Both the position numbers and the translations under genes were made by a program. Of a DNA stretch of 64,000 bases, positions 13,682 to 62,223 are shown one piece after another. The DNA comes from Paraphysomonas bandaiensis. Its lineage: Eukaryota > Protista > Chrysophyceae. The notes beneath the pieces are model-generated. The model saw nothing but the letters and a program-made list of their open reading frames with translations. It made no database searches and was not told the origin of the DNA. The first letter of the stretch is position 1, and the number at the start of each line of letters is the position of its first letter. The DNA is taken from the NCBI GenBank assembly GCA_965644295.1, contig CBFFRP010000276.1, positions 1 through 64,000 on the forward strand, given 5' to 3'.

Positions 13682-16600
13682 CTACTCTGTTGCACCATCT
13701 TTAACACTCTCATATGCCCACTGCAGTCAACAAAAAGTTAGAGTACAATATGGAATACAATCGCATGCTGCCATGTACCTTTAACCAGGGCATAAGAGCC
13801 TCCAGGTCGCTCTCCTCCACGGTAGCGCCGCACCATATCCTGAGACCATCTGGGGCATCACGATAGGCACCGATGTCGAATGCCACCATCTCTGTCTGCA
13901 AAAGCGCCACAAAGTTCTTGACCTGTTCCTTATTGAGGTCGAGAGTGAGACACACAGAGGTATTAGAAAGGGTGGAAGGGTCGTGCGCGAGAAAGGAGAT
14001 CCATTCGTTCACAGCAACGAAGCGCTGAATGACAGCCAGGTTACGCTTGGATTTGTCAATGAGACCGTGGAGACCACCGATGTTTTCTGACCACTCCATT
14101 GCATCGATATAGTCTTCAACACAGAGCATGGAGGGTGTATTGATAGTGTCACCCTTAAAGATGGCTTTGTTTACACGTACTGAACCATCCTTTTCCGTCT
14201 TAGCCATACGGAAAATCTTTGGTAGAGGGCGCCCGTGATCAAATGATTCAATACGCTCAACGGCACGGGGTGAGAGAATGAGCATACCATGTGCACCCTC
14301 CCCGCCCAGAACCTTCTGCCAAGAGAAAGTACTGACGTCAGTCTTGGTCCAGTCAATGTCCATTGCGAAAGCTGCAGATGTGCAGTCGTTGAAGGTGAGG
14401 CCTGTACGATTATCACTGATCCAGTCTAAGTCAGGCACACGGACTCCGGACGTAGTTCCGTTATACGTAAACAGCTATGCGAAAACGTCAGTTATAGCAG
14501 GTTTAGAAGTGATAAATACTTACAATATCATGATCCGGGTTGGTATCCGCAAGGTTCGGCAAGTACCCGTAGTCTGCTTTAAAGTCATTCACCTCAGGAA
14601 GCTTAAGATGCTTGACAGCATCTTCTCTCCAACCCTTTCCAAACGACTCCCAGTAGCAGGCGTCCACTGGTCGGGCACCTAACATATTCCACATAGCCAT
14701 TTCAAAGGCTCCTGTGTCGGAAGCAGGTACGATGCCACAGAGGTAGTCACTAGGAAGACCGAGGATGCGTTTCGTATCCTCGATGGCCTTCTTCAGGCGA
14801 TTCTTACCAATACTAGAGCGGTGAGAGCGACCGAGGACATCAGTGCGTAGACTGGCTACGGAATATCCAGGTCGCTTCTTGCAAGGACCACTCGAGAACT
14901 CAGGACTGCGTGGACGAACGGAAGGTTTGGTAATGCCCCTTGCATTGATTCCAGTAAGATTCGCTGAATTGCTCACGCGGAAAATAGGATCGAGATCCTT
15001 CTGGCTCTCCCACTAAAAATCAGAGTGTGCTTAACATCAATTAACTACCACAGCAGAGTATACATACCTGCACTGCGTTTGTGACGATTTTACATGACTG
15101 CATCTCATCGACAATGGCAGAGGGAATGGTGCTGTCTGTTACTAGGGCACCAAGTGCATACTTGGAACTGTCTTTACGGCCTAGGGAGAAGTTTGCAATA
15201 TTGATTCCAGCTAAGGCAACCTTTTCAGCAATGCGTCGAAGCACCCCTGGGGAGTCTTTATTGTTGAAGAGCAAGATATTCCCCTCAGTCGGAATCGAAA
15301 CCGGATACCCGTCGATCTCCGTGATGCGGATATCTTTCTGACCAAATACCGTACCTCTGACAGTGCGGGTCATGTTCAGGGTTCCCTCAACCTCAATCTC
15401 CACAGTCACCACATTGGCGAGGCCTGAGTCGGAAGGGGAACGTTGATCAGATGAGTTTACTGATACCTGTAAACCAAGCTCGTCTGCTGTTGCCATAGCG
15501 CTAACATAGGACACAGTCTCATCGCCTAGTACACCTAGTACGCCCTTCAAGACAGCGGACTTCATCACATCCACAATCCGGCTGTCAGCGATATCCTTTC
15601 CACTCAAATTAATCTGGATGTTGTTGACCTTATTAGTACCCAGCAGCTGCCCGTGTATTGATCCGATGCGCTCGCATAGCAAAACATAAGGTTTCGCCCC
15701 AGTAACCTTGTGAATAGCGCTCAAGTCGGGTGCGTTTACTACTCCCTTGTAATCTCCACCATCCAATATAGAAGTCATATTTTCAGCAACCTGTCTCGCT
15801 ACTCGAAGCTAACAACGGAACAGTGAACACAGAGCACAATGAATTCTAATGACACGACATGACGCTTCAAAATGGTATCACATAGCTAAATAACACATAC
15901 ACCACATTTCACACACTAGTACACTGTAGGTACCTGAGCATCAGTGGTGGAAGCTCCAAGATGTGGAGTCATTATGACGTTGGGGTGCATTCTGAGCTCG
16001 TGCGAGGCATCAACAGGTGGCTCTACCTCCAGGGTATCCAGAGAAGCTCCAGCAACGTGACCACTCTTGATGGCCTCGAGCAAGTCTTCCTCGTTAACAA
16101 TACCCCCTCTTGCACAGTTAACGATCCTCACTCCAGGTTTGCAGCGGGAGAGTGTAGCCCTATTAATTAGATAGCGGGTCTCCTTGGTCAAGGGTGTGTG
16201 GATGGTAATAAAGTCAGATCGGGCGAATATATCCTCAAGCTGCACTGGCTCAACGTCTACTTTTCTCGACGACGCCTCCGAGAGCACGGGGTCATAACCG
16301 ATGGTAACCATTCCGAAGCCCTGGCATCTACAGAAAGTGTTACTATACACATGACATAGGTATAACTTATCACCTTTGCGCTACATCTTTCCCGATCCTA
16401 CCCATACCAATGATACCCAGCGTTTTCCCGGAAAGCTCGGAGCCTGTGTAAAGACTTCGGTCCCAACGTCCCGCTTTTAGGGCGGCTGTGGCCTGCGGGA
16501 TATTCCGGGCCAATGCCAATATATGAGACACAGCCAGTTCAGCGGTAGATACAGTATTCCCTCCAGGTGTATTAACAACAAGAATACCTTTGCTAGTTGC

Positions 16601-16897
16601 ATGTTGTGTATCAATATTATCTACACCTGTCCCTGCTCGACCAATAAGCTTTAAGTTAACTCCAGCATTAATAACTTCCTTCGTTACTTTAGTTCCTGAT
16701 CGTACAACCAAACCATCATACTCATGAATACATTTTAATAAATCCTCTTTGCTTATTCCTGGTTTTTCAATTAATTCATGCCCACGTGAACGAAAGACTT
16801 CACCACATATTCCTTGTATACTATCACTTGCTAATATACGTGCTAAACGTGGGATTGTAGTAGAATATTTTCTGTTATGAATAATTAATGCTCTCAT
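13682..16897 (-). CDS. PHGDH-PSAT: Fused D-3-phosphoglycerate dehydrogenase (with ACT domain) and phosphoserine aminotransferase (serC-2/Methanosarcina-like), ~960 aa
   Basis: PHGDH motifs [36 protein letters not shown] motifs [51 protein letters not shown]. Introns 16328-16373, 15809-15933, 15013-15067, 14475-14523 and 13721-13778 give one continuous frame. Confidence 0.9.
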
Positions 16898-17492
16898 TGT
16901 ATTGATGATGATAATTAAAGTAAATTATAAAGATGTATGGAATATGGTTGGATGTATATGGTTTGATATGGTCTGGTGGGATGAGAGGCTGATTGATGTG
17001 TACAATGCACTTGCATGGAAACTACTAGATCATATATACCTATACACCATACACTTCTATACATACACTACTATATATACAGTACTATATACAGTGTTTG
17101 TATAGTATTATACGGCATACTCATATATATGGTAGCTACCACACAAGTAGTGTATGAAAATCAGCGGTGGTGGATGTATGTATATGCATATGGATGTAGT
17201 TTGTGAGTGTTGTGAACCACATATGAGTGATCTGCTGCTACTGAGTGTATATTGTACGAATGCTACTGTATATACGTACACATATATGTACCTTATGTGT
17301 CGGTACACAAGTACTCTACCTACCAACATATGCGGATCTACTGGTGTCTACAGGTACAGGTAGATATGTACAGTAGTGTATATATTAATGGATCTGGAAC
17401 GTGTATATATAAGAGGAGTGGATGGTCATGTGCTGTACACCCCTCTAACTATCCTCACAATAACACCCTATACAATACATATATAAGGAATC

Positions 17493-21660: not shown

Positions 21661-24600
21661 CTAATTCACTTTTAGAAATTTAGCTATATGACTGTATTCA
21701 TTAGTTCCTTCCATCTTGTGGTGATAATAGCATAGGAGGTCCTTTAATTCCTGTCCCAAAGAACTCTTAATCCTACCTTCCAGTGTGAGCAAGTTATCAG
21801 CAGGCAATGTACAGATCGAATGAGATATAATTTTGTAAATTTCGTTCACTCTAGCGTCACACAAATATGAATCGGACCCATTGCTTCCAACTTCTCTGAT
21901 TAAGCGTAAAATATCCACAAGCACGAAGTTCAGTTCACTACAACGGCTATCCTGATTAGAGCATTCATCTTTACTGTCGTTTAGGCTATTAGTCGTTGTG
22001 AATTCGTTTGACTCAGAGTGTGTGGCCCCAGACTCCGCATCGGCATCACCATATATTCCAATAGTGTCCGATATAGAGTTCTCGTCACGGGACATCCACG
22101 CCGGGCGGTTGCATATTCCTCTTCCCCGCCCGGGTAGTTGAGTTTGTGTAGGGGCTTGGACGTCATATTTGCTTTTCTTTGACGCCGGTTCGATGTTCTG
22201 TAAAGTGACGTCTGATAACTTCGATAGGCTAGGTACGCTGGATACATCATTACTACTGATGCCACTATCACCACTTTCAACACTACTACGTACAGATTTC
22301 TCAACCTCACCATTCGACATCCATGATGGAATATTTAACACCCCGCGTCCACGACCCGAAGGCGCCATGCAGGACGAATTCGACAACTCATTCACACTAC
22401 CCCGCTCCTCGCCCTGTACGGTTTCACTAGCAGTGGCATTTAGTGCACTTTGGTCACTCGACAACCACGCAGGTAGATTAGACACTCCTCTGCCTCGACC
22501 TCTGCCAGTATACGCTGTAGCGCAGGGAAAGTTTTCTTCAGAGAGAAACAAATCCGCAGCGGCGATATTAGTCTGGCGTATCTTCATTTCTTCTGTGATT
22601 CTTGACGCTTCCATTTGATTCGTCTCAGCAGAAACTCCCCCGACAGGTGGACAATATATATCAATTTTCTCTTCATGGCTGCTGGGCGTCTTATCTACTA
22701 GACCACTACGTTTTCTTTTCTTGTCTGTAGTAGAAAAAGCGGTACTTGAGGCCCGTTCATCTCTCATGCGGCTTAATGACTTCACTTCATCATGTAATTC
22801 GCTCAAAATTTTCAATGTTGAGGTGTCTACCGTGTCTTCACATGATTCCAAGTGATTTTCGACCATTGTGCCCTTTGCATCACTGATATATGAGCTGAAG
22901 TGACGATACAAAAACTTCAAAAATTCATCTTCATTTTCGACATGACTCAGCAGCGAAAGCGCTTTTCGACAATGAGGGTTCGTTCTCGGAACCATGCCAT
23001 CAAGAAATCTCGACAGGATCAAGTCCTCCAGATCCGAAGTGTAATCACTCGGAGTTCCACAAATAATTATCGCACGTTGCATATTGTTGCACTTAGAATC
23101 CTTCGTATCATCCACATTATCCACTTTTACCAGTTTCCCCCAAATAGCATACGCTGGTATACTAGTTGATTTTGCTCGACCAACTAAATCACCATCGATA
23201 TTCTCTGGCGTCTTGAAGACGAGACTAATACTTTCATGTTTATACATAGGCGGGGTAGGAGGTAATTCTGTACACCGCTCTTCTGATTGAGTACATAATA
23301 TTAAGAGGAGGTACACGATTCGCAAACGCTGTTGACCTCCTGCAATCGTTACCTGTTTTCCATGAATGCTGGAGGTTAAAGAAAAGTACTTATTATCAGA
23401 TATACGTGGAATTTGAAGAATTTCGAGTAACTGCGAATCTATCTCAGATAGAGTTTTCAATTCTTCTTTCTCGGCAATGGGAGAAGGTGTCAGAGGACGC
23501 CTTCTGCAGCTATGGTCTAGCATACCAATGGGCTGAAGGCTATGCTCTGGATTTAGTAGCGAAGACCGCAATACACCACAGCCAGTGGGGACGCGGTTTG
23601 CGTCGTCCAGCAATACAGGATGAACCTTCTCACTAACATCATTTTCCTTCCATAGCATGATCCACCTTGCAGGAAATGCGGTCAGACTAAAGCCTGGCCC
23701 CTTCAAGCAGTAGACACACAAGTTGGGGACATTTTTCAAAATATAGTTTCGAGCAGTACTTATTTGGCCTGGTTTCAGTAATTCATGAGGCTTTGCTCCA
23801 TTAAGGGCACTTTCCACAACCGTCCAAAGACAGTACGAAAATGCCTTTTTCTCGAAAGCACATGGAGTAGAAACAGACTTCTCTTCATACACCTAAATAA
23901 TAAAACAGTTATTGGTACATTCGTACAACGATTGTGCTACGTACCCGCTGGCAAAATTGTTTCAAAAAATCAGTTGCGTGGTAAGGATTTGCACCCACTG
24001 GTGGCGTAAGTAGCTCACATAATTCGGTTTTAAACGCACCTAGAGGCCACGCTACTGGGTCCTGATTCGTCCCACCATTATTCGACACCCAACATACATC
24101 AGAACGTAAGTTGTGCAAGTACCCAGCTTGTGCAAGTAGCTTGACCATATTAACCTTAATTTCATCCGAAGAAGTAGAGCTCGATTTCCTGATACCGATA
24201 TCAACACATCGCGATAATGTATATAACGTGTTCTCCATGTGACCAGGAATTACAAAGACTGGGTCTGAAGAGCAATGAGACTGAGCTGTTCCGCAACAAG
24301 CAGTTCGAATCCGCTTCTTGTCTGAGGAAGACAGTCGGTTTTCTCTTTGAGCTAAACAGATGCTGCGCCACACAGCAATCAGCTCAACGTACTTAGCACG
24401 AGAGCAACGGATAACCCCCCCAGTGAACATACACACGGCGGGCTCTTCTACATCCCTGGCACTTATGGATTGTGCAAGTGTATGTAATTGTTCAATAGGA
24501 GGAGGAGGTTTGACAGTTCCCCATGCGAACAACGCACTTACGACTGAATCTAGATTCTTAAGAGTACGCGACGCACGGGGTGGCAGTTTCAACACTGGCA

Positions 24601-27600
24601 TCGTCTCTGTTACAGAAGTTCCTATTGAAATATTGGGCTTATATTCACTTCCAGGAGACAAAACAACTTCACAGGGACGCAGAAGAACGGTCGCCGGGTC
24701 ATCACATAATGCTCCTGGCATAGTAGCTGGAACCCATTTGTAATCAGCTAAGCGCTTAATCCAAGCAGCCAAACCGACATTCATCACTGATGCTCCTATA
24801 TCGCATGTATTATAATATTGCAAAATAAACGGCAACGCATAAATCTCTGATACTACTGACTAAAATTCAACGGACCTGGTTGGCCTGGAGGCAGGTAATA
24901 CATACGTGCGTATGCCGGCGGAGGGTATCGGTCCATATCCGGCGGAATACGATGAGAGGAATTCACGTTGGTAGTCGCCACCCAATTATTGTCATCTGCT
25001 AATTGCTCTCTTCGTTTCTCACCAGGTTTTCCACACAGCAACGATGATAGGTAGGGAGTTGAATCCGCAGTGACAGATGAAGCATAATCTGCATTTTCAA
25101 GAAGCAGACATATCATAACCGCAACTCTCGTCGCATTTGACATTTCACTTCCATGCGTAGACTGAATGATTTCAATCCACTCCTGTGCAATATCGACATC
25201 AACTATTTCCACCTTTTTCTTTGTGAGCTTACCCAAATTGAAAGGTAAGAACATATCAAATGACGCGTTCGATTGACGCAATCTAATTTGGGGAATAAGT
25301 GATTCTTCGTCAGCTGTCAACCGTCGAAGGTGTGCTTCTAAGGATACTCCATTCTGTGCTCCACACTTTGATAGAAACGTGTGATACAGTTTCATCCAAC
25401 GTGTATTATTTTCAAACCCTTTCTTGACATAAACAGATGCAACGTAACTGAGAGAGGAATCGCGTGTCCTGTTGGCACTGGTAAAATTATCCGTAGAAAT
25501 ATATGCACTGCCAGATGGCACAAGTTTAAGACACCGGGAATCTTCAACCAGCAGGTGCGATACTGCCCCTGGTCTCTCCGCAGTTAACGCCCATTGAAAA
25601 ATTGTAACTACATCGTTCACAATATCACTCGGTAACCGAGAACCTTTGTACAAATCTGCCCAGTAAGTTAGTAACGCAGAGCATGCCGCATCTACTCCAA
25701 TAACACGGGAAGGATTCAGAGCTTGTGCACGGGATATGCACAATCGTGAAAGCCTAATCTTATCAGCCACTTCATTATGTTGTGCGCTGTCCGACGGAGA
25801 TACGAGTGCCTCCTCTACGTCCTTGTGCATCAACTTCAATGACACGTTGGTAGACTCATTGTTACGGTGTTTTCTCTTCTTTTTAAATGATGGCTGTTTC
25901 ATATTTTCTGTTTGTTTCCTCCGCTCAAGCTCAACATGTTCCGCGGCGAGTAAAACGCCTTTTCTTAGCAAGTCGTATATCGGGAGAGACTGGATTCCTT
26001 GAAAATCCTCAGGTTTCGGCCACGCCAGTTTATCTAGTGTAACAAATGAGCCGTCAGAAGTATAAAATACGGGCCAGTGATTCAACGCCGGCAACCATTC
26101 GGTTCCACCTTCCGACGGAGCAGATTGGCTGGTTGGAGCTGTAGCTTTAATCTTTTCAGAGGAGACAGATGCGGCCGCCTCCAGAGCAGAAAGAAAAGAT
26201 AAAGCTCTTTTCACATGATCCTCATCATTAGACAGTTGGAAATACGATATTCGATCACGAAGTAATCTGGCAGTTACTCTAGGTATACAATGCCAGAGTT
26301 CATACCATGCACACTCACATAATAAATCGCTGGCAAATGGATGCAGCCCAAACCATCGGCACACTATATCTCTCGGAAGATATTTCATCATCTCAGGAGG
26401 AAGCCAAATAACCTCAGCTGATTTAAAAAATCCGACTTCAGTTGAAGACCTCCACGCTGGCACAATTCGAGTGTGTAATACAGCATTCCTAACTTCAGTC
26501 GCATCCAATCGTTGTCCCAATACTTCGACAACTAATTTCTCACTAGAACTGCACCAAGAAAATTCAGGAATCTGACGATATGCACTTCCGATGTTTGTAC
26601 TCAGCTGCTTAGCAGTAGATACCCAGTGCAAGTACAGTACAACCAGTCGTGGATACTGTGAAAGTAAACACATGTTCCATTCATTGTCTGTGAGACTTTG
26701 TACATCTTGTCGATCAACAGAGAGCAGCCATGACCCTTGCATATGAATTCCAGGTGTGGGAAGTGCTAGTTTTGTCGGGAGAAGGGCATAAAGTAATCCT
26801 GGTTTCATACTATCGGGTAAGCCAGTCTTAGAACAGATTGAAAAAAATAAAGACACCTCCTCAACTTGTGATGAATTGCCTTTAATACTCCACTTTTTCT
26901 TCGTGTGTAATTCAAATGCATTTCTTGCCGCGAGGTTTGGAACAAAACAAACATTTAAAAATTGAACTACATGAGATTGTTTTTCGTGCTCCAATCGTAC
27001 AGTGTCTGCATAAGATGATTTCCACTCACTACATACCGGAGTCTTACATGCTGTAAATGTTTCAGAAATAGGGCTTACAACATGATCACATACGCGGTAG
27101 AAATCGTCTTGGTAGTGTAATGTCCATTCTTTGGCATTGGTACTATTGAATGCTTGGCGGCCGAGCAGAACAGGCACCGTGGTAGACAGACCTGCAAGGT
27201 CGGATTTAACAGCATGCATACCGCCTCTTGGACGCTGCAAGAAAAAAGAACACCACCCACGTGCTGCAGAATCATGAGACATGGCCTTCGACACCTCCTG
27301 CTTCAGTGAGTTTAGCTCACTCGAATGTACCCACTGTGGCTTTAGAACCCAGCTATGCGTGGGCTCCATTGTAGGAGAAGTGGCTGGTTCATCAAAACAG
27401 AAGCTCCATGTGTTGTCACACACGACGACTCGGGCATACCGCTTGTACACTGCTTTGAATCCCACACCCATGAATCCAATTTTCCTTTTTTCACCGGACG
27501 ACCCTTTAGTGGACAGTCCCACACTTGCCAACCCAAGAACATCTAGAGGAGTGAATCGTCGCCCATTGTGGCAGAACAATATACCCTCAGGGATATGGGA

Positions 27601-28113
27601 GTGACTTCCGTGACTACTCTTAACTACCACTTTATTAGCTCCATCATCAACTGCATTTTGAAGTAACTCAAACAAATATAAATCATTTCGAGGAAACTGC
27701 TTTTCTAATATAGCTAAAAAACCACGTATCGAAGGTTCTAAAACCTGTCGAGAGTAATATCTTTGTACAGCTTCAACAATTATCCTAGCAATATCTATTG
27801 ATACATCTATTGCACTAGACAATATACTCTCTCTAGTTGGAGGTTGATTTATACATACTCTTCCATCTTTATACCAGACAAACTCATCTCTTGTTCTACA
27901 TAATATGTATATAGAAGATGGAATACTGATACCAAGAATATCAGAATATATATCTTCATTTATTTCGTTTGATTCATTTCTTACTATTGCAATGATACCA
28001 TCATCACTCACGACGATACAGAGCATCTCTTCATTGCTTGATGGGAGAACGAAACATGGTCCAATTACATTACGTAATATAGGTTCAGCTGCTAGTCTTA
28101 ATGGAAGAGTCAT
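21661..28113 (-). CDS. Large (~2100 aa) sacsin/NOV-like HATPase-domain protein
   Basis: FELLQNAVDDGA, HNGRRFT, IGFMGVGFKAVY (GHKL-like sacsin-type ATPase). The three ORFs are joinable through an intron near 24800-24900 (exact ends ambiguous) and intron 23893-23944. First ATG at 28113. Confidence 0.8.
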
Positions 28114-28210
28114 TTTCAGGTTAAAAGTATGAATAGACAAAAGAAATGAATTCTATGTTAATAATCTTCTCTGCACACATATACACGATCCATCTCCGCC
28201 AAAACAGAAC

Positions 28211-28433
28211 ACATACATACATACATACATACATACATACATACATACATACATACATACATACATACATACATACATACATACATACATACATACATAC
28301 ATACATACATACATACATACATACATACATACATACATACATACATACATACATACATACATACATACATACATACATACATACATACATACATACATAC
28401 ATACATACATACATACATACATACATACATACA

Positions 28434-28465
<32 letters not shown>

Positions 28466-28741
28466 CATACATACATACATACATACATACATACATACAT
28501 ACATACATACATACATACATACATACATACATACATACATACATACATACATACATACATACATACATACATACATACATACATACACCATACATACATA
28601 CATGCATACATACATACATACATACATACATACATACATACATACATACATACATACATACATACATACACCATACATACATACATGCATACATACATAC
28701 ATACATACATACATACATACATACATACATACATACATACA
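28211..28741. repeat. (TACA)n microsatellite, ~530 bp
   Basis: Directly visible, with a few variant units (atat, cacca, atgc). Confidence 0.99.
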
Positions 28742-29891
28742 GGCAGTATCTGTGGAGGATATCTAGTCAGAAGAGTCAGTCATGTATTGTTCTTGTTGAA
28801 TATTTACATGTGATTATACATCATATCACTGAGCTCAGTATATATAGTCTTTACACACTTGATATGAAAGAATTCTGCAGAAGATAGCACTTGGTTCCGT
28901 GGTGAAATCCCTTATCCTATAATTGCATTCATACAAAGACAGAGGGATGTACAATGAACTTACAAACTTCTTAGGGTAATCCGGGATTTCTTTGGATATT
29001 ATTGATCTCGACTGCACTGATTGCTTAATTCGATGGTTTTGTAGGAAAGCACTTTGGACAAAACCACCACAGGAGATTGACTTAATATGGTAACTATTAA
29101 GACCAAAAATGGGGAAAGTTTTCTCAGTTGCGATGGCCAAACCACATATCTGCTCCTATTATAGTCACTATGTGTTAGATTGTACCTTTGAGCTATATGT
29201 GGTGCTATATAGATTGGAGAGTTCTTGAAACAACTTTGGTGTAATAGACAGACAAATATGCGGTAAAGAAATAATAAATGTAGCGGTGATTAGTAGAAAC
29301 TAATTGAAGTTGTCAGTCGATTCCATTCTTAAGACCCCTTGCGTATATACCCCTACTACTTATCCAGTGGAATATCCAGGAGTAAACAGTATTGTCAATC
29401 ATCTCCTGAGCACACCTCTTCCCTATTCCTAATAATCAGGAAGTTATATCCATCGATTGTACTGTAACCAAGGAATTACATCTTCATTGTCTGGTGATCA
29501 CTCTCTGTGGAAAGGCAAAATCATACCGTTGACACCTTGACCACTATCGTCTATCGTGTAATGTTTTTGATATGATTCGGCTTGATGTAACGTGTCGAGT
29601 GTTATTTCTATCTAACGATAATAAAATAGATGATTAGTACTGGTTAAATCTCTGAATTAATTCTGCTGCGTATAGTAGCTGTTACATTATATATTTTCGA
29701 CGCTAGCATGTAATGGTACGAGAGGGTAGGTATCTAAAGCTGGAATAGAGTAATTAGGTAATAAAGCTTAGAAAAAACAGTAGAGTTCTGGATAAACCTG
29801 AACAGCTATTTCATTCGTGAAAGTTTACAGGAACGCAACGACAAAGAAACGGAGTCAAAATAAGCACAAACTTACAATTATATTCATCAAA

Positions 29892-52609: not shown

Positions 52610-54557
52610 TTTACATTACCAGAATAAATTTTTAGCTCTATAGTAGTAGCAACCACTGATCTTGAAACTTTTGTATCTTGAATCGTCACGATTGTTGAGC
52701 TGCACAGATATATTATACATAGCTATAATATTCTATGAAATCATCTATTACCGCATTAAATTTTTAAGAAATGCAATATTAAAGGAACATATACTTATTC
52801 CAACACTCGCACTCAATGTAGAAAGGAGTGCTAGTCATAGTACTGTAGCTGAATATTGATGTGAGTTCGTCATTAAGATATTCTGTACACCCCAAACTCA
52901 GTGTATCACAGTTTTGTGGGATGAATACCAACTAAAGCACACGTCAACCTCGTTTTGAGAACTGCTTTTGAAACATTCCTCTGCTCTTCTGTAATCGTTA
53001 CTTCATGGCGTATGCTTAGTCTGTATTCTTTAGCCTATAGGACTAAATCCAGTCTAAGGTCTAAGCATACGTGGAGGAGATCGTCGGCCGTATGCAAAAT
53101 CTTCGCTGAGCTCTTCATCCCGTGGTAAGTGTCAGGGCCTGGTTAAATTACATGTAGACGTCGTTATCAGATTCTAGATCTGCATACAAGAAAGTATAGA
53201 ACTCATGTTAAGTTGGTGAAACGTAATGTGTATCATCACGTAGCAATATTACTATAAAATAAGTTACACTACCATTGCAAATATAGATTGCGCCTCTTGT
53301 TTCTTTTCCTGAAGATTTCCTAGTAGGATGATCTTCTGCCTGCATATGATCCTCCATCTGTTGCCGTGTCGTCTCCGAGCATTGAAGTCGAGCATTGGTA
53401 CTAATACTACTGTAAGTAGTAGTGCTGTTATAGCATGTAGTAGTGGTGATATGCCAGCTCTATGCGTATGCAATGTATCCCAAATCAGGCTATTCGGTTG
53501 TGGCGTTTTCAATATGATATTACAAAACAAAAGTAGCAGGGGCAACTTGTAACGCAAGATATATATACTTCTAAAACAACTATTATTGCGACTTTTTCTT
53601 TATCTTTAACTTCTCAGATACAACTTACAGTAATATAATAATTTAATACTTAGATATGAAACCTGGTGAAATCGCTTTACCAGGTTTTGGTACTACCTCG
53701 ACTTTATGACCACTAATTTATCCTTCCTCCAGAATTCCTACTGAGGCTCACTGATATCCTTAGTCATACATATGGTTTACAGTTTACATCGGCGTCCATT
53801 ACTTGTACCACCTTTACTACAGTCTCCTTCTTAAGAAGTTAATACCGCAATAGTCAAATAGTCAATGCATACTATCTCCTCTATGCTCCGAAATAACTCT
53901 AAACAATATTAGACAACAAACTCTACAGGTACTTTGTGGCAACTTTGTTCACTATCTTCTCAATGTTCTACAGTTAGAGAATAGTTACCTGAGCGCGCAA
54001 TATCTAGATATGCATAGCAACATAGCAACGTACTCATATACCCACAAACTCAAAAAAAATCATTGAAAATATGCATATTTCATCTAGAAAACTTTGACTC
54101 CATGCCATATCCACAAATATCTAGTGTAGAAAGCCTTCGTGATAAAAGACACCTACGTATAGTTTGATTCACATTCAACACACAACTCACTTCAATTGCA
54201 CAGCATATGTATATATTACTATATTACAGGGCTATTGAAATGCAAAAGCCAACTACACCATGGAATATGTAGAGGGAAAAACTGGGAATGTATGACTGGG
54301 AGACTGTTTCTGTAACTGTGCGTGTGAAAAGTAGAGTGCATATTGAATTTAGAAACAATTTTGTAAGAGTATTAATTACAGATAAGTATATCGACGCATC
54401 ATATATTGATGTATCATTTTTATCACAAGAAGTTGTATCATCATAATATATATTCGCAATATTACCATTGCATGCCACCAAATTGTCAATCGCCTTTCAT
54501 AGCTGACAAGCATATCCATAACAAGATTATTCAACAGAGAGAACAAAATAATGTGTC

Positions 54558-57500
54558 CTAGTAGACACTGGATACCCCTGCAAAGCGATGGCGAATGCTG
54601 AGATAACGCGCCCAATTTAAATCTTCTTTCACTGTGCGCGGGTTGGATGTACTATACACCGCATCCAACGCATTCATATTCGCGGCATACGGAATTTCAA
54701 GAAGGTCAGCGGTTTTCTTTTCTTCAGCAGCAATTGTCGACTGACGTACACTCTCTACAACCGTATTAACCTCATAAACTAAAATAAAGAGAGGAACTAT
54801 TATCCGTAAGAGGTTGTAGAGAATAAGTACCAAAGTGAATAATGTTGGATTCTGCACTGAAATATTCTCAAATCGATTCTGCATCTCTATTGCAAAGTAA
54901 AGCACTTGTGAGTATATTTCAAGACTGTTAACAATTATGCCTACGACTTGCCGAAATGATCGGCGACTGACAATTGACCAGGCGTAGACAAGTAACAGAG
55001 GTCCAACAACCACCGCCATAATGCTATTAATTGAAATCAGGAAGTCATCTGCCGTCACATATCGACTATCATATTTCCCCATTTGTTTCCAAATCGCGAG
55101 CATCCAGGATCGCGATGTGCCGCCGTCACCAGCGCGGTACGCGAACATGGCATATGTACCATTCAAGTATATATGTATCAAGCCAACCAACACACTCCAA
55201 CATATGATTAACTTCTCTCGAAGCGACAGCGTCGAGCGATTGGATTGGAGATCCTCAAACTCCACCTCGTCAACGTCTGCCATTTCCTCGTCGTATCCCC
55301 AGGAATCCATCTTATTCAACTCCTCAAACGACGCGCCTGACAATGCCAACACTCTCTTACGATGAAGCATTTTTGACTTCATTGCACAATGTTCGTTCCG
55401 TCTCACAAGAAGAGAATACAGTCCGCCTGCACAGCTCATACACACTAGTTGAAAGAAACCACCACTGAAAGCAAGTGCAGCACTAACAACAAGCTCAATT
55501 TGTACCAAAGTCTCTATTTCCTCAGGAGAATAGTCACCGTGATCGATATGCAAGTCTGCATAACTACTGCGCACCTCTCTGGGAACATACGTGAGCAGCA
55601 CCGAATTCACGATAGCCGTGGACACAACAACAAACAGGGCCACGGGGATGACGAAATACCGATACAGTCGAACAATTGCAGAATCCTTGGTGAATGACGA
55701 CCATATTCCGACACCACTTCCTAACAGCACAGTAACACCGCTATAAAGCAGTGCATATACTGCGAACACAAAGAAGTCAAATCGAATCTTAAGAAGAAAA
55801 TTTAAGGCACTGGCACCATAACCAATCATAGAGAAGGCAATAAGTATCGATACGACTTGAGCGATTCTGACAACAACACGATACTGATTCATTTGTTCGT
55901 TCATACGCCTATCGATAGCAAACCGGCTCAACTTCGTCTTCGCCTCCACTTCAAACTCACGTCGGAGAAGTTCCGTCAGACAGGTTGACAACATCAGGGG
56001 AATTAAAGAGCATATAGACAGGACAGCACTCGCGGCCCCAAGGATTATATTATATCTTTGTAGAACAGCCTTAACGTCTCCTTCACTGCTAGCACCAGAC
56101 ACTCCTTCAAAGGCCTAAAACCCAAAATATGACAACGAAAAAATAAATATTTACCCACTACCTTGTTGCTTATTCCTGTTACCCTGGGGTCATTGGTAGA
56201 GAAGATGGAACACACCACGCCAATGATGAGAAAGACAATGAAAAAGCACGATAAACAGCTATTGTACATCGCCAACAAGGGACGGTTGCTTGTGTGACTA
56301 CCAACAAATCCCGCAAAGTTAAGTAGCGCCAAAAGAGAAGACATGCATAACACCACTACGCCAGACCACATCTGCATACGAACCAGTGTGGTGGAAGTCC
56401 AGTACATAGTGGATAATGCGTAGCCAGCCATACCAACACACCCTAAACATAGAAGCATATATATCCCCACCGCATAACCAAGCCATCGCCTTAGTTTATC
56501 TTTCGATCGACGGAGTAGGAATTTTGGCAGGAGGAGTTGATAACCACGACTGATAGCCGAGCCAAAAGAAGTCACCAATCTCCTGGGAATCGACTCGGCT
56601 AACTGAATCATACGCTGTACAGAAGATATTGATGAGGTAGAATCATAGCTAGATGTGGTGGGCGAATGACTAACGCGGACAGCAGAGCTTGTTCCCGCCT
56701 CCACATCCCGGACAACACTGTGAAAAAAATCAAGCTCACGCTCCCACCCTGTGTACTCGCCAACAGTATCCGTCTCCATGGCATCTCCGAAGGCGCTCGT
56801 GCAGACAGTTGAAGAATCGGCCGACTGAAATGACATCATCTTGCTAAAATTTCTTGGAGAGATGGGAACGACACGCACAGACTCAGGAGGGGAGTTTGTT
56901 TTGTCATCAGAGCTACTATCATTCCCAGAGCTGAGGATAGGATATCCCTTCCCGTTCGGTCCACATGGAAGATCACCGAGTATAGATGCATATGGGTGAA
57001 AATCACTGTTTAATGCCGGGAGTTCACCACTATACGTGCTCGGCATATTCGGACGACCAATGTAATCATCCAGGGCAGTGATCCACTCCTCCTCCTTCGG
57101 TCCGAATATTTTTATTTTGCCTGCCACCACCGGATCCAGCCAAGGCTTGACACCTCTCCAGACGAGAGGAAAAACGGCGGGGGTGTTGATGATGAACGTC
57201 TGCCCCAGTGTTTCAGGATACTGATTCTGTGAGTAACCACGCATTAACAACAGTTCTGCATATCCACTATACAAACTACATATGTACTATAAATACTCAA
57301 TTTCACTCATTTCTTCAGCATATATCTAAAACTCGTACCTGATCGATGTCAGCAATCGCTTTAATAATGCCCAGAAAGTCCCTTGTCACTTGGTACAACT
57401 GCATGCCTTTCACATCGATGACAGCAGTAACAGTTTCCACGATATAGCCCGTTTTCTTAGACGACTCGTAGCACAGCTTCATGCATGCTTCCTGTTCCCA

Positions 57501-59299
57501 GATATGATATCTCGTCACTGCTTCCAGAGAGCTCATTCCCAGTATCTTGGAAGCATCCATGGAGTTGTTGTATTGCTTATAAAGCACTGGGCGTCCATGC
57601 TTGTCGACCCCGCTCTGCCAATGAGGAAACACTTCTACGAGATCGCCTATTTCGCATCCCAGAATTTCGTCCGGGACTTGCGCGCATAGCCCTTTCACAT
57701 CCATATCCTCGCGCCATTGTAGATTTCGCAAGATATGTGCTTTGGTCTTGCTTACAACCCACTTGTTAGCACGGAGATAACGTAAGAGAATAAGGTGAGG
57801 ATGTAGTGAGTGCAACGCAAGGTCTGTGGTATCGATGCCTTCATCAAGTACCCACTGCTCCAAGGACTCCAGGTCTCGAGACTGGGGTTCCGTAAGGGAG
57901 CCATAATATCCCTCCTATGAATAATTAAATCAGTAATCAACAATAAACACATTATGCAGCAACATATACCCTCTGGTAGTACGGAGAGTCCGGGTGATAC
58001 TGGAGTGGCAGTTCGTCACAAGGGGGTTTACTTGACTCATCGCTAGTTATCGACACGATCTCTTCAGCATCATCACACGGTACGACACCACCGCAAACTG
58101 AGTGTGGGAGAACTTGGGAGCCAAGGGTGTATAACCGTGTGTTGTATTGTGTCTCCTCCAATCGCATGCGGCGAGTAATCGAACCAATACGACCATATTG
58201 TTGTGAAGCTTCCAGGTTGTCGTTGTTAGCTGATATATACAAATATTTAAATTTAATTTGAATAATTAATACTACTGATTCCGTGTAAAAATTAATGCAC
58301 AATACACATCAGCAGGTGAGGTGACATCAATATTAACAAATACCTGTATCCTCCTCTCTAGGAGCAGTACGTACGATGGCTTCATAGGGGTGTCCAGTAG
58401 GGTCTAGAGCAGGCATCTGGCCATGATACGTACTCGAAACATTTTCCAGTCCGATAAGATTACTAAACGCAGGAAGCCAGTCGTCTTTTCCTCCAAGAAG
58501 GTGAATTTTACCAGCAACTGTAGGGTCTAACCACGGTTTCACCATACGCCACACCACAGGGAAGACGGAAGAAGTATTAATTACAAAGGTTTGGCCCATC
58601 GTTTCCGGGTATTGTGCCTGCATTTTATCTACGTGAACAGCAATAGGACAAGAAATATTTTTAACAAAATACCTGGTCAATTTCAGCCACTAGTTTTATG
58701 ATAGCCAACAAATCACGACTCAACTGGGACAATTGAAGACCTCCCACATCCACAACGCCTGTCACTGTTTCAACAATATACCCCGTTCGTTTCGAGTGCT
58801 CATAGCACAACCGCATGCATGCCTCCTGCTCCCATACATGATACTTCGCAATTGCGTCCCAAGAACACATATTTTTAATCTTCGTAGCATCAAATTTTGC
58901 ACCATACTGCTTGTATACAATTGGTCGCCCAAACATATCGAATCCACTTTGCCAATGAGGAAACAGTTCCATTAAGTCTTGTAGATCACATCCCAGTATA
59001 TCTTCAGGTCGCATATTACATATCTCTTTAACACCCATTTCTGAACGCCATTCAAGATTCCGAAGAATATGTTCAATAGTTTTATTAACATTAAATTTAT
59101 TAGCACGTAAATATCTTAATAATACTAATTTAGGATTTAATGCATTCAGACTTAAGTCTGATATATCGATTGATTCATCAATGATCCATTTTTGTAATGT
59201 TTCTAAATCAATTGATTGACTGGATGTTAAATGACCTAAATAACCATCTTTACCATAATATGGTGATTTTGGATGATAAGATAATGTATGATCTGCCAT
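54558..59299 (-). CDS. Multidomain protein: 2x Sec14/CRAL-TRIO + 2x four-TM tetraspanin-like blocks + EBP/EXPERA-like domain, ~1452 aa
   Basis: Two LLRYLRANK...QYPET.G..F.IN...FP.VW..VKPWLDP..AGKI domains; EBP-like WKQMGKYDSRY...GP...VLYFAIE. Introns 58618-58672, 58230-58343, 57915-57969, 57227-57338 and 56115-56161 give one 4359-nt frame. Confidence 0.85.
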
Positions 59300-60016
59300 G
59301 TATGAACTGTTTATAGTAATGTATTAGATATACATATATATATATGATATTCTCTTGATTGTGGATGTAATTTATACGTTCAATGAATTCCTTATATTAG
59401 AAATCATGTTTACAATAATATCAATGAATGTTTTACACCTTAATAGTAACTTCTAGTGGGATATGTATCTACTTAGTGATGTATATATAAGAATGTGTGT
59501 ATATATGAGAATGTATGTATATATATAGAGAGCATCGTATTGAATGGTATGAAAGTTAGAAGAAGGGAGTATATACACTCTGATGCTCGTATGTGTTTAC
59601 CCTGACACCATATGGACACCCGTTTTTACACTTCATTATGACGAATCTTCAATAGACACCCCTTTTCTTGACAATTTTTACTGAAATATATATGAGTGTA
59701 TATTTTTTCCAGTTTTTCATTTTGGTACATATGAAATTTACGTAGATATTGAAAGCTTTTTGCAAGTATTGTATACAAAGAGCAAAAAACAATTTTTTAT
59801 GTTAAGAAACTCGAGTTTCTAGAAAGAAAATCTCTCAATCTCCATGATATTCCTGTGTAGATAGGGATAAAAACAGCAGTATAGTACACAAAACCCAGCC
59901 AACTATATGGGCATATATATGTACACCACTGCTCATAATTATTAAGGAGATACTAAGCAATTCTCCATATCAAAACTGACATCAATTCGTGTATTCATTG
60001 TCTTGTGTGAAACTTA

Positions 60017-61542
60017 ATGGCAGAGGTAATGTAATCTATAGCATATTGACCACTAATTGATGCATATATATCCAGAAATACACACGCTGGGCAGATAAAT
60101 CCAACGGCGTAAGTTACACTATCAAACACACACTCATATATACATATATATATAACTTCTATTCTTATACATTATCTATTAGATAAACCCTTTTGTATCT
60201 GATGAAGCAAGGGCTTATAAAAGTTTCACTGGAAGGGTAATATCTACAATTGTCACTGTTTTGGTTGGGATTCCTAAATTGATAATTGTTACCATTCTTT
60301 TCATGCTCTCCGCATGCGTGAATATCATTTTTCATGAAGTTGGACTTCTACTTGCTGCTATTGGTGTTGGCTCGATGTGTCATTATAGTAATCAGTCCCC
60401 TTTACCTGCGATTATTGTTGGCTGTATATCAGCTGCAATGGTGATGTATGTTATACATTTATATTATATCTAACGTTTGTATGCTGTCCAGCTTCTTCCA
60501 CTACCATTCACTTCTCCTATTACTTTGATTAGACGTTCAATATCTCGCGTCATTACTTATGTATGCTTGTTTTTGATTGGTGTTGATTATCGCGTATCTA
60601 TGGCTAACACCTCCCGAGTTGTGGGAGTGCGGTCAGATAGCAAAAGCGCCCCTCCACCCCTTTCTCATATAATGCCAGGCGATCTTGTTATCAGTAATAT
60701 CACTAGCGTTCTTGAGGTATGTTAATTTTGTTACTTATAAAGTACTATGTACTTGTACATATTCTGGAGAATCGAGAAGCTAATGTAATTCCCATCTGTT
60801 TTGCAGATATTATTTTACGAGTCCATTTGCAGCCCGCTATATGTTTTTCCAGTCCGATTGACTCCCTCCAGTTCTCATGAGCCCTCTCTTTATCACTGCC
60901 CTGCTGTTGGTTTTTTTTCGGCCTTGCGCATATCAATGTCTCCTTCAATATCTCAGTCACAAACATCTGACGTGAAACGCCAAACCCTAACTGCAGTATT
61001 GCAACAAGCCAAGTCCGCTGGGCGGTGTGTGATCATTTTTCCAGAAGGAGTTAGATCCAATGGATCTGGTGTGCTCAAGTTTCCTGAGGAGGTGAGGCGT
61101 AAGGGGTATACTGTTATGTTGGCGTGGTAACATACTTCATACGCAGATATTTTGTGACATTTCCACTGTTAACACTTCGATTCATCTTGCCGGTTTTACA
61201 TACCCTTCTGCCTCCACACAGCCCTGCTGTCCCGTTGGTTCCCAAGTGCTTCGAATAATTTCCACATGTGGGGCGTTGAGCCTCCCCTGCGCTGGTCGTC
61301 TTCTTGTGTTGCCTTCAAAATACCTTTCTGAAATCCACCAGAAACTCTCAACTCGAAATAAATCTTCTGCTGTTCGCAACTGGACCAATGAAGTTCGAAA
61401 CATTTTTGCTAAATTAATCAACAAGAAAACTGTGGAGCTAGGAGTTGATGACTTTGAGTCATTCCGTAGTTACTCTGATGCTATGAAAAGCGGAGATATG
61501 GAGTTAGCACGAAAAATTGCGGACAGTCGTATAAAAAAGTAA
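60017..61542 (+). CDS. Lysophospholipid acyltransferase, Loa1/Vps66-like
   Basis: MAE|KYTRWADKSNG|INPF start typical of Loa1-like proteins; GDLVISNITSVLE (motif I variant), IIFPEGVRSNG (motif III); multi-exon. Confidence 0.8.
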
Positions 61543-62223
61543 ATTAAATTGATTATAATAAAGACTGAGTCATAGAACAATAGAAGTAACGGAAATATTA
61601 TATTCGGGCATTGTATTCTGCAGGAAGTTGTTTAGGCATGTATATTATATATTATACCACAATGGCTTCGTTAATTCTTTAAACTGTCGGGAGATAGTAC
61701 AAATGTCTTGCGTAGTTAGCTGCTGAATGAAATATGCCGGATGCTTTAAAGCAGATATATAACATTTCAGATTTGAGTTTTAAAATATATAATGAACTTT
61801 TACTACTTTTAAAGTTATCGTAATTTGTATGTAAATCATTGTTATTTTGCTTATGTATTATTGGTATGTCTGTGAAGTAGCTGACGTAGCTAGTATTGAC
61901 CACTATGAGCGCAGTGTAGTAAAAGCAATGACGACTAAGATAGAGGGGAAAAAAACATCACATTACGAAGAAATGTATGTGTATACATTGTTCAACTTCC
62001 ACCAATGCTGTTCTCACGAATTATTCGCTCGAGTTTATTACCAGTTGTACATACTATAATCAGATATAGCCTGTAAAGGTTAACTGAAAATGAAAAAATG
62101 GCTATACAAAGTAACTATATCAGGTGTATTTGACTTCACTTCACGAAGTGTAGTAACACAGTTTTAAAACATCCAGACATATCAAACAGCAAAAACTATC
62201 CACAGGGAATTTTTATTTCATAC

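Follow-up and report, generated by a model that had tools for sequence, protein, structure and literature searches.

The window, a 64,000-nucleotide stretch of Paraphysomonas bandaiensis DNA, contains a locus in which Sec14/CRAL-TRIO domains, two four-helix membrane blocks and an EBP-like (EXPERA) domain lie in one frame. Does this locus encode a single polypeptide, and what could such a protein do? The initial annotation had called the architecture foreign to described proteins, and our literature search agrees, as it found no paper describing a Sec14-(4TM)x2-EXPERA layout. New here, from sequence and structure models, are a likely dead EBP domain, an FFAT-like linker core, the replacement of the KKxx end and a predicted 12-helix unit.

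Results

A single spliced gene encodes the fusion protein

The six joined exons give a 1,452-aa frame with zero internal stops (Table 1). The five GT..AG introns measure 55, 114, 55, 112 and 47 nt, with a GC content of 0.25-0.33 versus 0.36-0.50 in the exons. Within one set of four RNA runs, X1, X2 and X4 contain all five exon joints and X5 four; within a second set, also of four runs, X3 contains all five, X7 (a polyA library) two and X13 none. The joints over introns 58230-58343 and 56115-56161, which had been proposed for a transcript check, were both found in spliced runs. Single spliced contigs with five of five joints come from X1, X3 and X4, the six exons lying on one contig of 4,653 nt in X1 and 4,424 nt in X3, and the gene model is identical in every residue to the Paraphysomonas transcriptome protein P0010. 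The single-frame polypeptide with five canonical introns is thereby confirmed: the fusion is a real, transcribed, spliced single gene encoding one polypeptide.

An artefact, in which at least two adjacent genes were fused by invented introns or mis-assembly, has a negligible probability. Reading through intron 2 would terminate a free 303-aa Sec14, and X2 yields the transcript as two contigs with a break near 56,780 and a loose end. Against this, X18 gave an unspliced, DNA-like contig of 10,248 nt with the same exon order as the genome, dozens of homologues share an identical order of parts, and the spliced contigs together with the transcriptome identity refute the separate-genes reading. The order Sec14-Sec14-(4TM)x2-EBP first proposed holds. 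Pfam matches over the whole protein are CRAL_TRIO twice (E 6.5e-57), CRAL_TRIO_N twice and EXPERA (1.1e-07), with a Tetraspanin match under the cut-off (3.2e-04).

Table 1 Positions of the fusion gene, its encoded parts and the neighbouring gene in the window
Feature	Residues	Position	Strand	Remarks
Whole gene, 6 exons	1,452 aa	54558..59299	-	Joints in RNA runs; identical to P0010
Exons		59299-58673, 58617-58344, 58229-57970, 57914-57339, 57226-56162, 56114-54558	-	
Introns		58618-58672, 58230-58343, 57915-57969, 57227-57338, 56115-56161	-	GT..AG
Sec14/CRAL-TRIO domain 1	6-289	58378..59284	-	Pfam; yeast Sfh1/Sec14 matches
Sec14/CRAL-TRIO domain 2	376-660	56984..58005	-	Tandem copy of domain 1; tree
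Ser-rich linker	661-811	56531..56983	-	Low confidence, likely disordered in homologue model
Phospho-FFAT candidate	711-717	56813..56833	-	Score 1 on published matrix
Family-conserved FFAT-like core	724-730	56774..56794	-	Behind S/T tract; score 2
4-TM block a, tetraspanin-like fold	826-978	55983..56488	-	Structure comparison on homologue P0021
4-TM block b	1012-1168	55413..55883	-	Old repeat of block a
Linker, predicted cytosolic	1169-1233	55218..55412	-	Acidic here, family-variable
EXPERA/EBP-fold domain	1234-1392	54741..55217	-	Sequence; fold comparison
Tail, predicted cytosolic		54561..54740	-	No KKxx; hydrophobic last residue
Divergent acyltransferase-like gene, five introns	401 aa	60017..61542	+	Own transcript; not in fusion

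The acyltransferase-like gene begins 718 bp from the fusion ATG, head to head on the + strand, and has a separate spliced transcript; intergenic bins are empty in the spliced runs. Its Pfam Acyltransferase match is under the cut-off (E 4.5e-04), and the Loa1-like identity of the initial annotation is putative. The divergent pair about 720 bp apart described earlier is thus real, but a functional link between the two genes is unsupported: no acyltransferase-like gene was found in about 8 kb of DNA upstream of one related locus, L007 (best E 0.06).

The architecture recurs in other lineages

All four parts of Sec14-(4TM)x2-EXPERA are complete in 24 among the 150 matches listed, and the named taxa with the complete architecture are Triparma, pelagophytes, Chrysoparadoxa and Telonema. 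Seventeen rows among the matches listed consist of TMa-TMb-EXPERA without Sec14; these may be incomplete gene calls broken off at introns. Diatom, oomycete and brown-algal names do not occur among the named matches, from which absence cannot be read since most matches are nameless. A metagenome scan with P0003 returned seven loci, two with the full architecture (L001 and L007) and five with Sec14 alone; the scan with alignment A2 returned no matches.

The Sec14 domains likely do not carry phosphatidylcholine

Domain 1 matches yeast Sfh1/Sec14 at E values of about 1e-26 to 1e-22, and the CRAL-TRIO N and C domains and the Sec14 fold are present by sequence, Pfam and structure comparison. The two copies are identical at 172 of 284 residues and share an intron at the same codon, while their 4-fold sites agree at chance level (14/51). 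The tree indicates that the conserved family unit is one Sec14 and that doubling is lineage-specific, having happened at least three times.

We examined the lipid-binding residues with roles as given in the available text of PMC12658205. E207 and K239 are kept in 35 of 36 family Sec14 domains, and the PC-binding S173 and T175 in 3 and 4, respectively; both are replaced in the two copies here (V/G and V/A). Three of the five PI-binding residues (R65, K66, E207, T236 and K239) are kept in both copies, and since R65>N and T236>V occur in both, phosphatidylinositol binding may be weak here. R65 together with T236 is retained in 8/36 family domains, with deeper branches keeping both. By the yeast barcode, the cargo is likely not phosphatidylcholine; likelier candidates are phosphoinositides and neutral lipids, for example sterols or squalene-type molecules. 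The domains thus share the fold, E207 and K239 with Sec14/Sfh and SEC14L proteins, and human SEC14L has likewise lost the PC residues, according to the same partial source; in contrast to all of these, the fusion Sec14 is anchored by 12 predicted helices, carries a putative FFAT and has changed R65 and T236. MOSPD2, as far as its available description goes, joins CRAL-TRIO to MSP, the receptor for FFAT motifs, on the side of the ER, whereas the fusion carries an FFAT-like motif instead. The periplastid Sec14 of PMC5756292 was set aside: the available text describes a periplastid-space protein and does not mention the fusion.

The Sec14-to-membrane linker carries an FFAT-like core

In the model of homologue P0007, pLDDT falls under 50 across the linker (279-403). 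Scoring used the phospho matrix of PMC7705450 Table EV4, from the available part of that source, with D/E additionally allowed at position 4. The best score in the protein belongs to the phospho-FFAT candidate, which is present only in this protein; the score of the neighbouring core depends on D being permitted at position 4. Across the family, the core pattern is found in 27 of 38 Sec14-to-membrane linkers versus a shuffled mean of 6.35 (maximum 18, 1,000 shuffles) and a strict pattern in 16/38 versus 1.25, counts to be read with the facts that the regular expression was composed after the sequences were seen and that the 38 rows are related to each other. On the adapted matrix, 22/38 linkers score 3 or less (shuffled mean 4.4, maximum 8, 200 shuffles), and 16/38 fail to reach 3 (6/38 without SCORE5); such scores are weak on their own, as 2,079 proteins in a human set of 20,373 also fall under 3.

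The core is not in excess in the tails (3/32 vs 3.0 expected) and is not enriched in Sec14-Sec14 linkers (0/7) or TM-EXPERA linkers (1/36). The motif spans Telonema, Triparma-group, pelagophyte, Chrysoparadoxa-group and chrysophyte rows, and the core accompanies an acidic or S/T tract within a predicted cytosolic disordered region, as expected of FFAT-type clients. The core is predicted to dock on the ER via VAP, and the contact-site idea of the initial annotation now has direct sequence support from the FFAT-like motif. Within the ER, too, VAP can be bound by an FFAT motif, a caveat to any tether reading.

Two tetraspanin-like repeats are predicted to pack with EXPERA

Structure models were those of homologues P0007 and P0021, not of the Paraphysomonas protein. 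The membrane part of P0021 is modelled confidently (pLDDT 85.9, pTM 0.83), while the full-length P0007 model (pTM 0.45) is uninformative on Sec14 docking. Block a, whose coding is split by intron 5 and whose short outer loop is Cys-free, aligns in P0021 with uroplakin (Z 15.9, rmsd 2.4, 159 aligned), and block b with PRPH2-ROM1 (Z 15.9, rmsd 2.6, 173 aligned); CD9 and CD53 are less similar than these compact tetraspanins (Z 9.2-9.5). The four helices have the tetraspanin-superfamily topology, but match designed four-helix bundles equally well (Z 16.0 vs 15.9). Pfam Tetraspanin reaches its cut-off in some homologues (44.6 bits in P0006). HHalign identifies blocks a and b as repeats (97.6%, 158 columns); a relation of the blocks to EXPERA was rejected (under 1%).

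As in uroplakin, PRPH2/ROM1 and CD81, each block has four helices with a small first and a larger second outer loop; compared with these tetraspanins, the blocks are doubled and fused, without CCG or loop disulphides, and the second loop is about 32 aa. CC occurs in the large outer loops of 0/55 rows for block a and 0/70 for block b, in line with the missing CCG loop reported before. The long loop of the P0021 model, between TM3 and TM4, is helical; both blocks are all helical without a LetA-type outer beta-sheet, and LetA is missing from the best 50 rows of either structure-comparison list (VIA). Near-invariant residues include W56 (96%) and N83 (88%, P0021 numbering). The 12 helices of blocks a, b and EXPERA are predicted to pack as one unit, and each solved chain among those listed covers no more than about one four-helix block, which leaves this conserved assembly without a solved counterpart among them.

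The EBP-like domain has most likely lost enzyme activity

The EBP-like domain proposed earlier holds as a fold (Z 19.6, rmsd 1.6, 162 aligned; sequence E 1.8e-18), with the correction that isomerase activity is most likely absent. It retains six of the eleven alanine-scan residues (H76, W101, D108, R110, Y111 and N193) and changes the others (E80>N, Y104>M, E122>N, T125>M and W196>R). Human EBP carrying E80A is inactive, and either E122A or W196A lowers its activity strongly, according to the available text of PMC6549186. With E80, E122 and W196 lost, and W196 missing in 55/55 fused rows (R in 38), the domain is likely catalytically dead. Of the 55 fused rows, 54 conserve D108 and all 55 conserve R110, versus 24, 8 and 16 for H76, E80 and E122; in contrast, 27/50 other rows keep H76, E80, E122 and W196 together. 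The EXPERA fold and the D108 motif of EBP are therefore present, while the H76-E80-E122 triad and W196 read H, N, N, R. Compared with EBP, the sterol delta8-delta7 isomerase, the domain shares the fold and the H1 motif W101/D108/R110/Y111 but lacks T125, the KKxx end and a counterpart of EBP TM1, in addition to the acids and Trp above, and the tree places fused domains and stand-alone EBPs apart, with an SH-aLRT of 96.

The tail suggests a location outside the ER

The K+R fraction is 0.12-0.25 in inner loops and 0.06-0.11 in outer loops, and the N-terminus, linkers and tail are predicted to be cytosolic. A hydrophobic C-terminus can aid ER export. The last residue is hydrophobic in 42/60 fused rows (13.3 expected) versus 3/22 stand-alone EBP-like rows. 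A KKxx-type end is found in 1/60 fused rows versus 13/22 stand-alone rows, so the C-terminal lysine ER-retrieval signal of EBP (PMC4263179, available part) is not a feature of the fused rows. These counts suggest that the fusion protein is more likely outside the ER than within it. Acidic dileucine signals show no clear enrichment in the tails (10/60 vs 6.6). An excess of YxxPhi (29 vs 17.1), which may reflect the conserved helix that follows EXPERA, was left out of the argument.

Discussion

We lean, with modest confidence, towards the fusion being a STARD3-like lipid-transfer tether, anchored in a non-ER membrane, binding VAP of the ER and shuttling lipid across the contact. With N-terminus, linkers and tail predicted on the cytosolic side and the 12 helices as its membrane unit, KKxx loss and the hydrophobic last residue would let the protein leave the ER, with the food vacuole/endolysosome, the Golgi or the plasma membrane as possible destinations. 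The FFAT core would bind the MSP domain of VAP and keep the ER near, a phosphorylated S/T tract possibly being the switch; Sec14, tethered by a flexible stretch some 70-370 residues long, would ferry lipid between the two membranes, and the dead EBP pocket would bind or sense host-membrane sterol rather than isomerise it. The membrane-anchored lipid transfer at contact sites suggested by the initial annotation is supported by sequence, with four independent signals in agreement: lipid-carrier domain, FFAT, lost ER retrieval and dead sterol pocket.

Through VAP, STARD3/MLN64 (MENTAL, phospho-FFAT and START) sets up contacts between the ER and late endosomes, and it transports cholesterol (PMC7705450, in its available part). 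The likeness lies in a multi-pass membrane domain, a linker FFAT (predicted here) and a shuttle-type lipid-transfer domain on one chain, and is an analogy, not family membership: the fusion has Sec14 instead of START, a tetraspanin-fold pair plus EXPERA instead of MENTAL, the reversed order and 12 helices instead of 4.

Other readings must be weighed. The 12-helix unit might itself be a lipid transporter or flippase, a pseudo-dimer of tetraspanin-fold repeats, like LetA/PqiA/TUPAL, that moves lipid across or off the bilayer and passes it to Sec14, a reading we regard as unlikely. Blocks a and b are indeed repeats, packed with EXPERA in one confident model and holding invariant aromatic and polar residues; LetA comprises two tetraspanin-like domains moving lipid (PMC13017536), and at the digestive vacuole PfTUPA combines 2x4TM and a lipid-transfer domain in a fusion (bioRxiv 10.64898/2026.09.11.750981), each as described in the available text. 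The feature in common with LetA/PqiA and TUPAL (PfTUPA), so far as these partial sources go, is a tandem pair of four-helix repeats of the tetraspanin superfamily, linked to a lipid-transfer domain. However, the modelled TM3-TM4 loop is helical, the model shows neither an outer beta-sheet nor a zinc ribbon, the blocks are closer to compact tetraspanins than to CD9 or CD53, an EXPERA domain is added, and the predicted cytosolic Sec14 differs from a lumenal TULIP or MCE domain. Improbable too, in our view, is a self-contained lipid exit machine that predates ochrophytes, in which the pseudo-dimer and EBP pocket would extract food-vacuole/lysosomal lipid, sterol or another prey-derived lipid, for delivery by the protein's own Sec14 to a VAP-held ER. 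If true, a tetraspanin-fold transporter and a cytosolic shuttle would have converged with STARD3 and TUPAL from other parts.

An ER-resident sensor or scaffold is a similarly doubtful candidate: the dead EBP would sense sterol, Sec14 would hand lipid to an enzyme, for instance a PI 4-kinase or acyltransferase, and FFAT would recruit VAP of the same membrane. EBP is an ER protein, presenting lipid to PI 4-kinase is a known Sec14-like role (PMC7462610, available part), and the acyltransferase-like gene lies head to head; yet KKxx is gone in 59/60 fused rows, and no such neighbour was found upstream in L007. An active isomerase with altered chemistry, supplied by the Sec14 domains, is very improbable. 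The close EBP fold and the six retained residues would suit it, P0076, P0108 and P0118 (3/55 fused rows) keep H76, E80 and E122, and a new Glu at Q158 (19/55) with the Arg at W196 could make an alternative site, but both catalytic acids are Asn in the Paraphysomonas protein and H76, E80 and E122 vary freely over the family.

The literature searched describes almost nothing of ochrophyte ER contact-site machinery, for which this family is a candidate. If the tether reading is true, the fusion would be a convergent STARD3 with a sterol enzyme recast as a binding or sensing module. In a Rhodelphis protein, a different sterol-carrier domain (VASt) is joined to an FFAT-like motif as well as to an EXPERA that is degenerate, which suggests that the same solution arose twice.

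Gene model and transcripts

The six joined exons of the fusion gene, all with GT..AG joints, yield an open reading frame of 1,452 codons with no internal stop. Eight public sequencing runs were mapped over 53800-61700. All five splice joints are present in X1, X2, X3 and X4, four in X5 and two in the polyA run X7; X13, where coverage is thin, shows none. All six exons lie together on one 4,653-nt contig of X1 and on one 4,424-nt contig of X3, a 3,974-nt contig from X4 spans every joint, and the region is unspliced on one 10,248-nt contig of X18. For X1-X5 the library type was guessed by a tool; their contigs are nonetheless spliced, and intergenic bins are empty. Additionally, the chrysophyte genus Paraphysomonas (taxid 36769) is represented in EukProt/MMETSP by a protein matching the model at 100%, and P0010, a stored transcript product of 1,452 aa in that protein's cluster, is identical to the model. 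The contigs and P0010 thus bear out the single polypeptide proposed in the initial annotation, with no split into separate genes. A>T differences occur at window 55413 and 59279 in several runs, including the DNA-like X18, and the protein still equals P0010.

The gene had also been described as divergently paired with a Loa1-like acyltransferase. A neighbour with its own transcript does start 718 bp away, but its acyltransferase label comes only from a sub-threshold match, and it was not found upstream in L007, the sole related metagenome locus with ~8 kb of upstream DNA. We treat the pairing as incidental.

Features of the fusion gene, its protein and the surrounding window
Feature	Position	Strand	Details
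Fusion-gene exons	59299-58673, 58617-58344, 58229-57970, 57914-57339, 57226-56162, 56114-54558	-	six exons
Acyltransferase-like neighbour	ATG 60017	+	401 aa; five introns confirmed
Phospho-FFAT candidate	aa 711-717 of fusion protein		score 1, unmodified matrix
Family FFAT-like core	aa 724-730 of fusion protein		score 2
Phosphoglycerate dehydrogenase with adjoining frames	13710-16924	-	dehydrogenase part: Pfam 2-Hacid_dh, PGDH_inter, ACT
Adjoining frames	14503-15012, 13710-14474		presumably phosphoserine-aminotransferase-like; no Pfam match
Microsatellite	28121-28800		~650 bp, TACA-type four-base unit, producing repeat ORFs
Long gene	21661-28152	-	three or more large frames; sub-threshold Sacsin-domain match
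FAD-dependent oxidoreductase	9954-11959	+	BFD-like 2Fe-2S domain; hydrophobic insert within DAO domain

Domain architecture and family

Pfam recognizes two CRAL-TRIO domains and EXPERA in the fusion protein, with a tetraspanin match below threshold. The two Sec14 copies are identical at 172 of 284 residues and have an intron position in common, and their 4-fold sites are saturated. The 4-TM blocks a and b are mutual repeats (HHalign 97.6%), and HHalign found no relationship between them and EXPERA. AlphaFold2 was applied to the membrane part of P0021, a homologue, using an alignment of 80 rows, and returned a pLDDT of 85.9 and a pTM of 0.83, so a single packing arrangement is predicted for the three four-helix blocks. 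EXPERA of this model aligns with the human EBP structure at Z 19.6 (rmsd 1.6, 162 aligned); the 4-TM blocks match uroplakin and PRPH2-ROM1 at Z 15.9, and designed bundles do equally well at Z 16.0. Charge bias of the loops predicts that the N-terminus, linkers and tail are cytosolic, consistent with the lumenal EBP N-terminus, ahead of EBP's extra first helix, described in PMC6549186.

A membrane-part profile matched 514 proteins at E <= 0.001 among 50%-identity representatives. Of the 150 matches listed, 24 have the complete set of Sec14, EXPERA and the two blocks; the Sec14 domain is single in 21 of these and doubled in 3. The others are mostly fragments or stand-alone EBPs. Organism names, available for a few of the 29 proteins checked, are Paraphysomonas, Triparma columacea, Chrysoparadoxa australica, Chrysophaeum taylorii, Pelagophyceae CCMP2097 and Telonema subtile, the last a long-branched row and possible contaminant; two further Triparma species have the family. 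A 36-domain Sec14 tree, with near-copies and short domains omitted, pairs the tandem copies of P0044 (99/100) and of P0074 (100/100) with themselves and puts those of the fusion protein's group in their own clade (99/93), a topology indicating at least three separate Sec14 duplications. The EXPERA tree (57 rows) splits 23 stand-alone EBP-like rows from all 30 fused rows (SH-aLRT 96). The metagenome loci L002, L003 and L004 hold kindred Sec14 frames, two in tandem in L004, with no membrane unit seen in the available DNA.

Positions of the Sec14 ligand barcode were placed via Sfh1 alignment. PMC12658205 assigns R65, K66, E207, T236 and K239 to PI, and S173 and T175 to PC. E207 and K239 are present in 35/36 domains, T236 in 16/36, R65 in 8/36, T175 in 4/36 and S173 in 3/36, and both Paraphysomonas copies carry R65>N and T236>V. 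Judged by residue identity, PC exchange is unlikely, and PI binding by these two copies is uncertain.

Loss of catalytic residues and change of the C-terminus

Eleven EBP residues subjected to alanine scanning were taken from PMC4263179. The fusion protein retains H76, W101, D108, R110, Y111 and N193 and lacks E80, Y104, E122, T125 and W196. Across fused rows, near-copies counted, W196 occurs in 0/55 (Arg in 38/55), E80 in 8/55 and E122 in 16/55; D108 is kept in 54/55 and R110 in 55/55. H76, E80, E122 and W196 are jointly present in 27 of the 50 other rows. Human EBP E80A is inactive, and E122A or W196A has little activity, according to PMC6549186. The fold and H1 lid motif persist as the chemistry decays, a pattern that would suit a domain with a binding or structural function.

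Four homologues close to the Telonema row (P0076, P0108, P0118, P0103) form a sub-clade with H76, E80 and E122 retained and W196>R, and could represent an early step in the decay from EBP. In P0145, from EukProt Rhodelphis limneticus, one chain combines a VASt sterol-carrier domain with an FFAT-like motif (score 2 w/o SCORE5); its EXPERA is degenerate (E80>D, E122>Q), and the 4-TM blocks are missing. It may have reached the same logic through a separate fusion.

Among rows with complete EXPERA, intron-cut rows removed, the last residue of fused proteins is V/L/I/F/Y/M in 42/60 (expected 13.3) and a KKxx-type end occurs in 1/60; for stand-alone EBP-like rows the counts are 3/22 and 13/22. A hydrophobic last residue can promote ER export; alternatively, it could be a PDZ-type ligand.

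An FFAT-like motif in the linker

The linker from the last Sec14 to block a (67-368 residues, low-confidence in the homologue model) carries a recurrent aromatic-x-D/S-A core after an acidic or S/T tract, a feature absent from the initial annotation. In 38 linkers, still related by descent after near-copies (22 ids) were dropped, the core pattern, a regex written post hoc, occurs in 27, against 6.35 on average and at most 18 over 1,000 shuffles; the strict pattern occurs in 16, where shuffling averages 1.25. The core shows no excess in tails (3/32), Sec14-Sec14 linkers (0/7) or TM-EXPERA linkers (1/36). When scored on the Table EV4 matrix of PMC7705450, modified to permit D/E at position 4, 22/38 linkers reach <=3 (shuffled mean 4.4, maximum 8), and 32/38 without the position 7-8 term (shuffled 7.7, maximum 15). 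STARD3 scores 2.5, compared with 1 and 2 for the fusion protein. Against the motif stand the ~1/10 of human proteins that score <3 (PMC7705450), the kinship of the linkers and the post hoc regex.

Possible mechanism

The data show that the gene encodes one polypeptide whose architecture is conserved; catalytic residues have been lost, the linker motif is enriched and the C-terminus has changed. By analogy, we lean somewhat towards a protein that works like STARD3 without being one: it would reside outside the ER, its FFAT-like linker motif would bind VAP, its Sec14 domains would shuttle lipid and its probably dead EBP domain would bind sterol, on a predicted 12-helix unit and topology. That the 4-TM repeats instead act as a transporter, by analogy with LetA (PMC13017536) and TUPAL (TUPA preprint, bioRxiv 10.64898/2026.09.11.750981), appears unlikely, and we consider a sensor or scaffold in the ER improbable. 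Paraphysomonas and Telonema are phagotrophs. For the STARD3-like reading, a food-vacuole target would suit them; photosynthetic taxa also carry the gene.

The initial annotation knew of no described protein with this architecture. This holds for our full-text search, with subscription journals mostly outside it, where no description was found and the papers returned concerned TUPA, tocopherol (by listing) and ORP9-ORP11, besides stramenopile titles on FFAT, Sec14 or VAP without the fusion; among the papers listed by a further search, none contained EXPERA. Databases show the Pfam combination automatically, with members named only 'hypothetical' or 'CRAL-TRIO domain-containing'. The family is real and apparently undescribed, and can be seen as a variation on the membrane-anchored FFAT lipid-transfer proteins, its own FFAT being putative.

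Elsewhere in the window, the phosphoglycerate dehydrogenase runs nearly gapless to its adjoining frames, and the whole is a probable SerA-SerC fusion.
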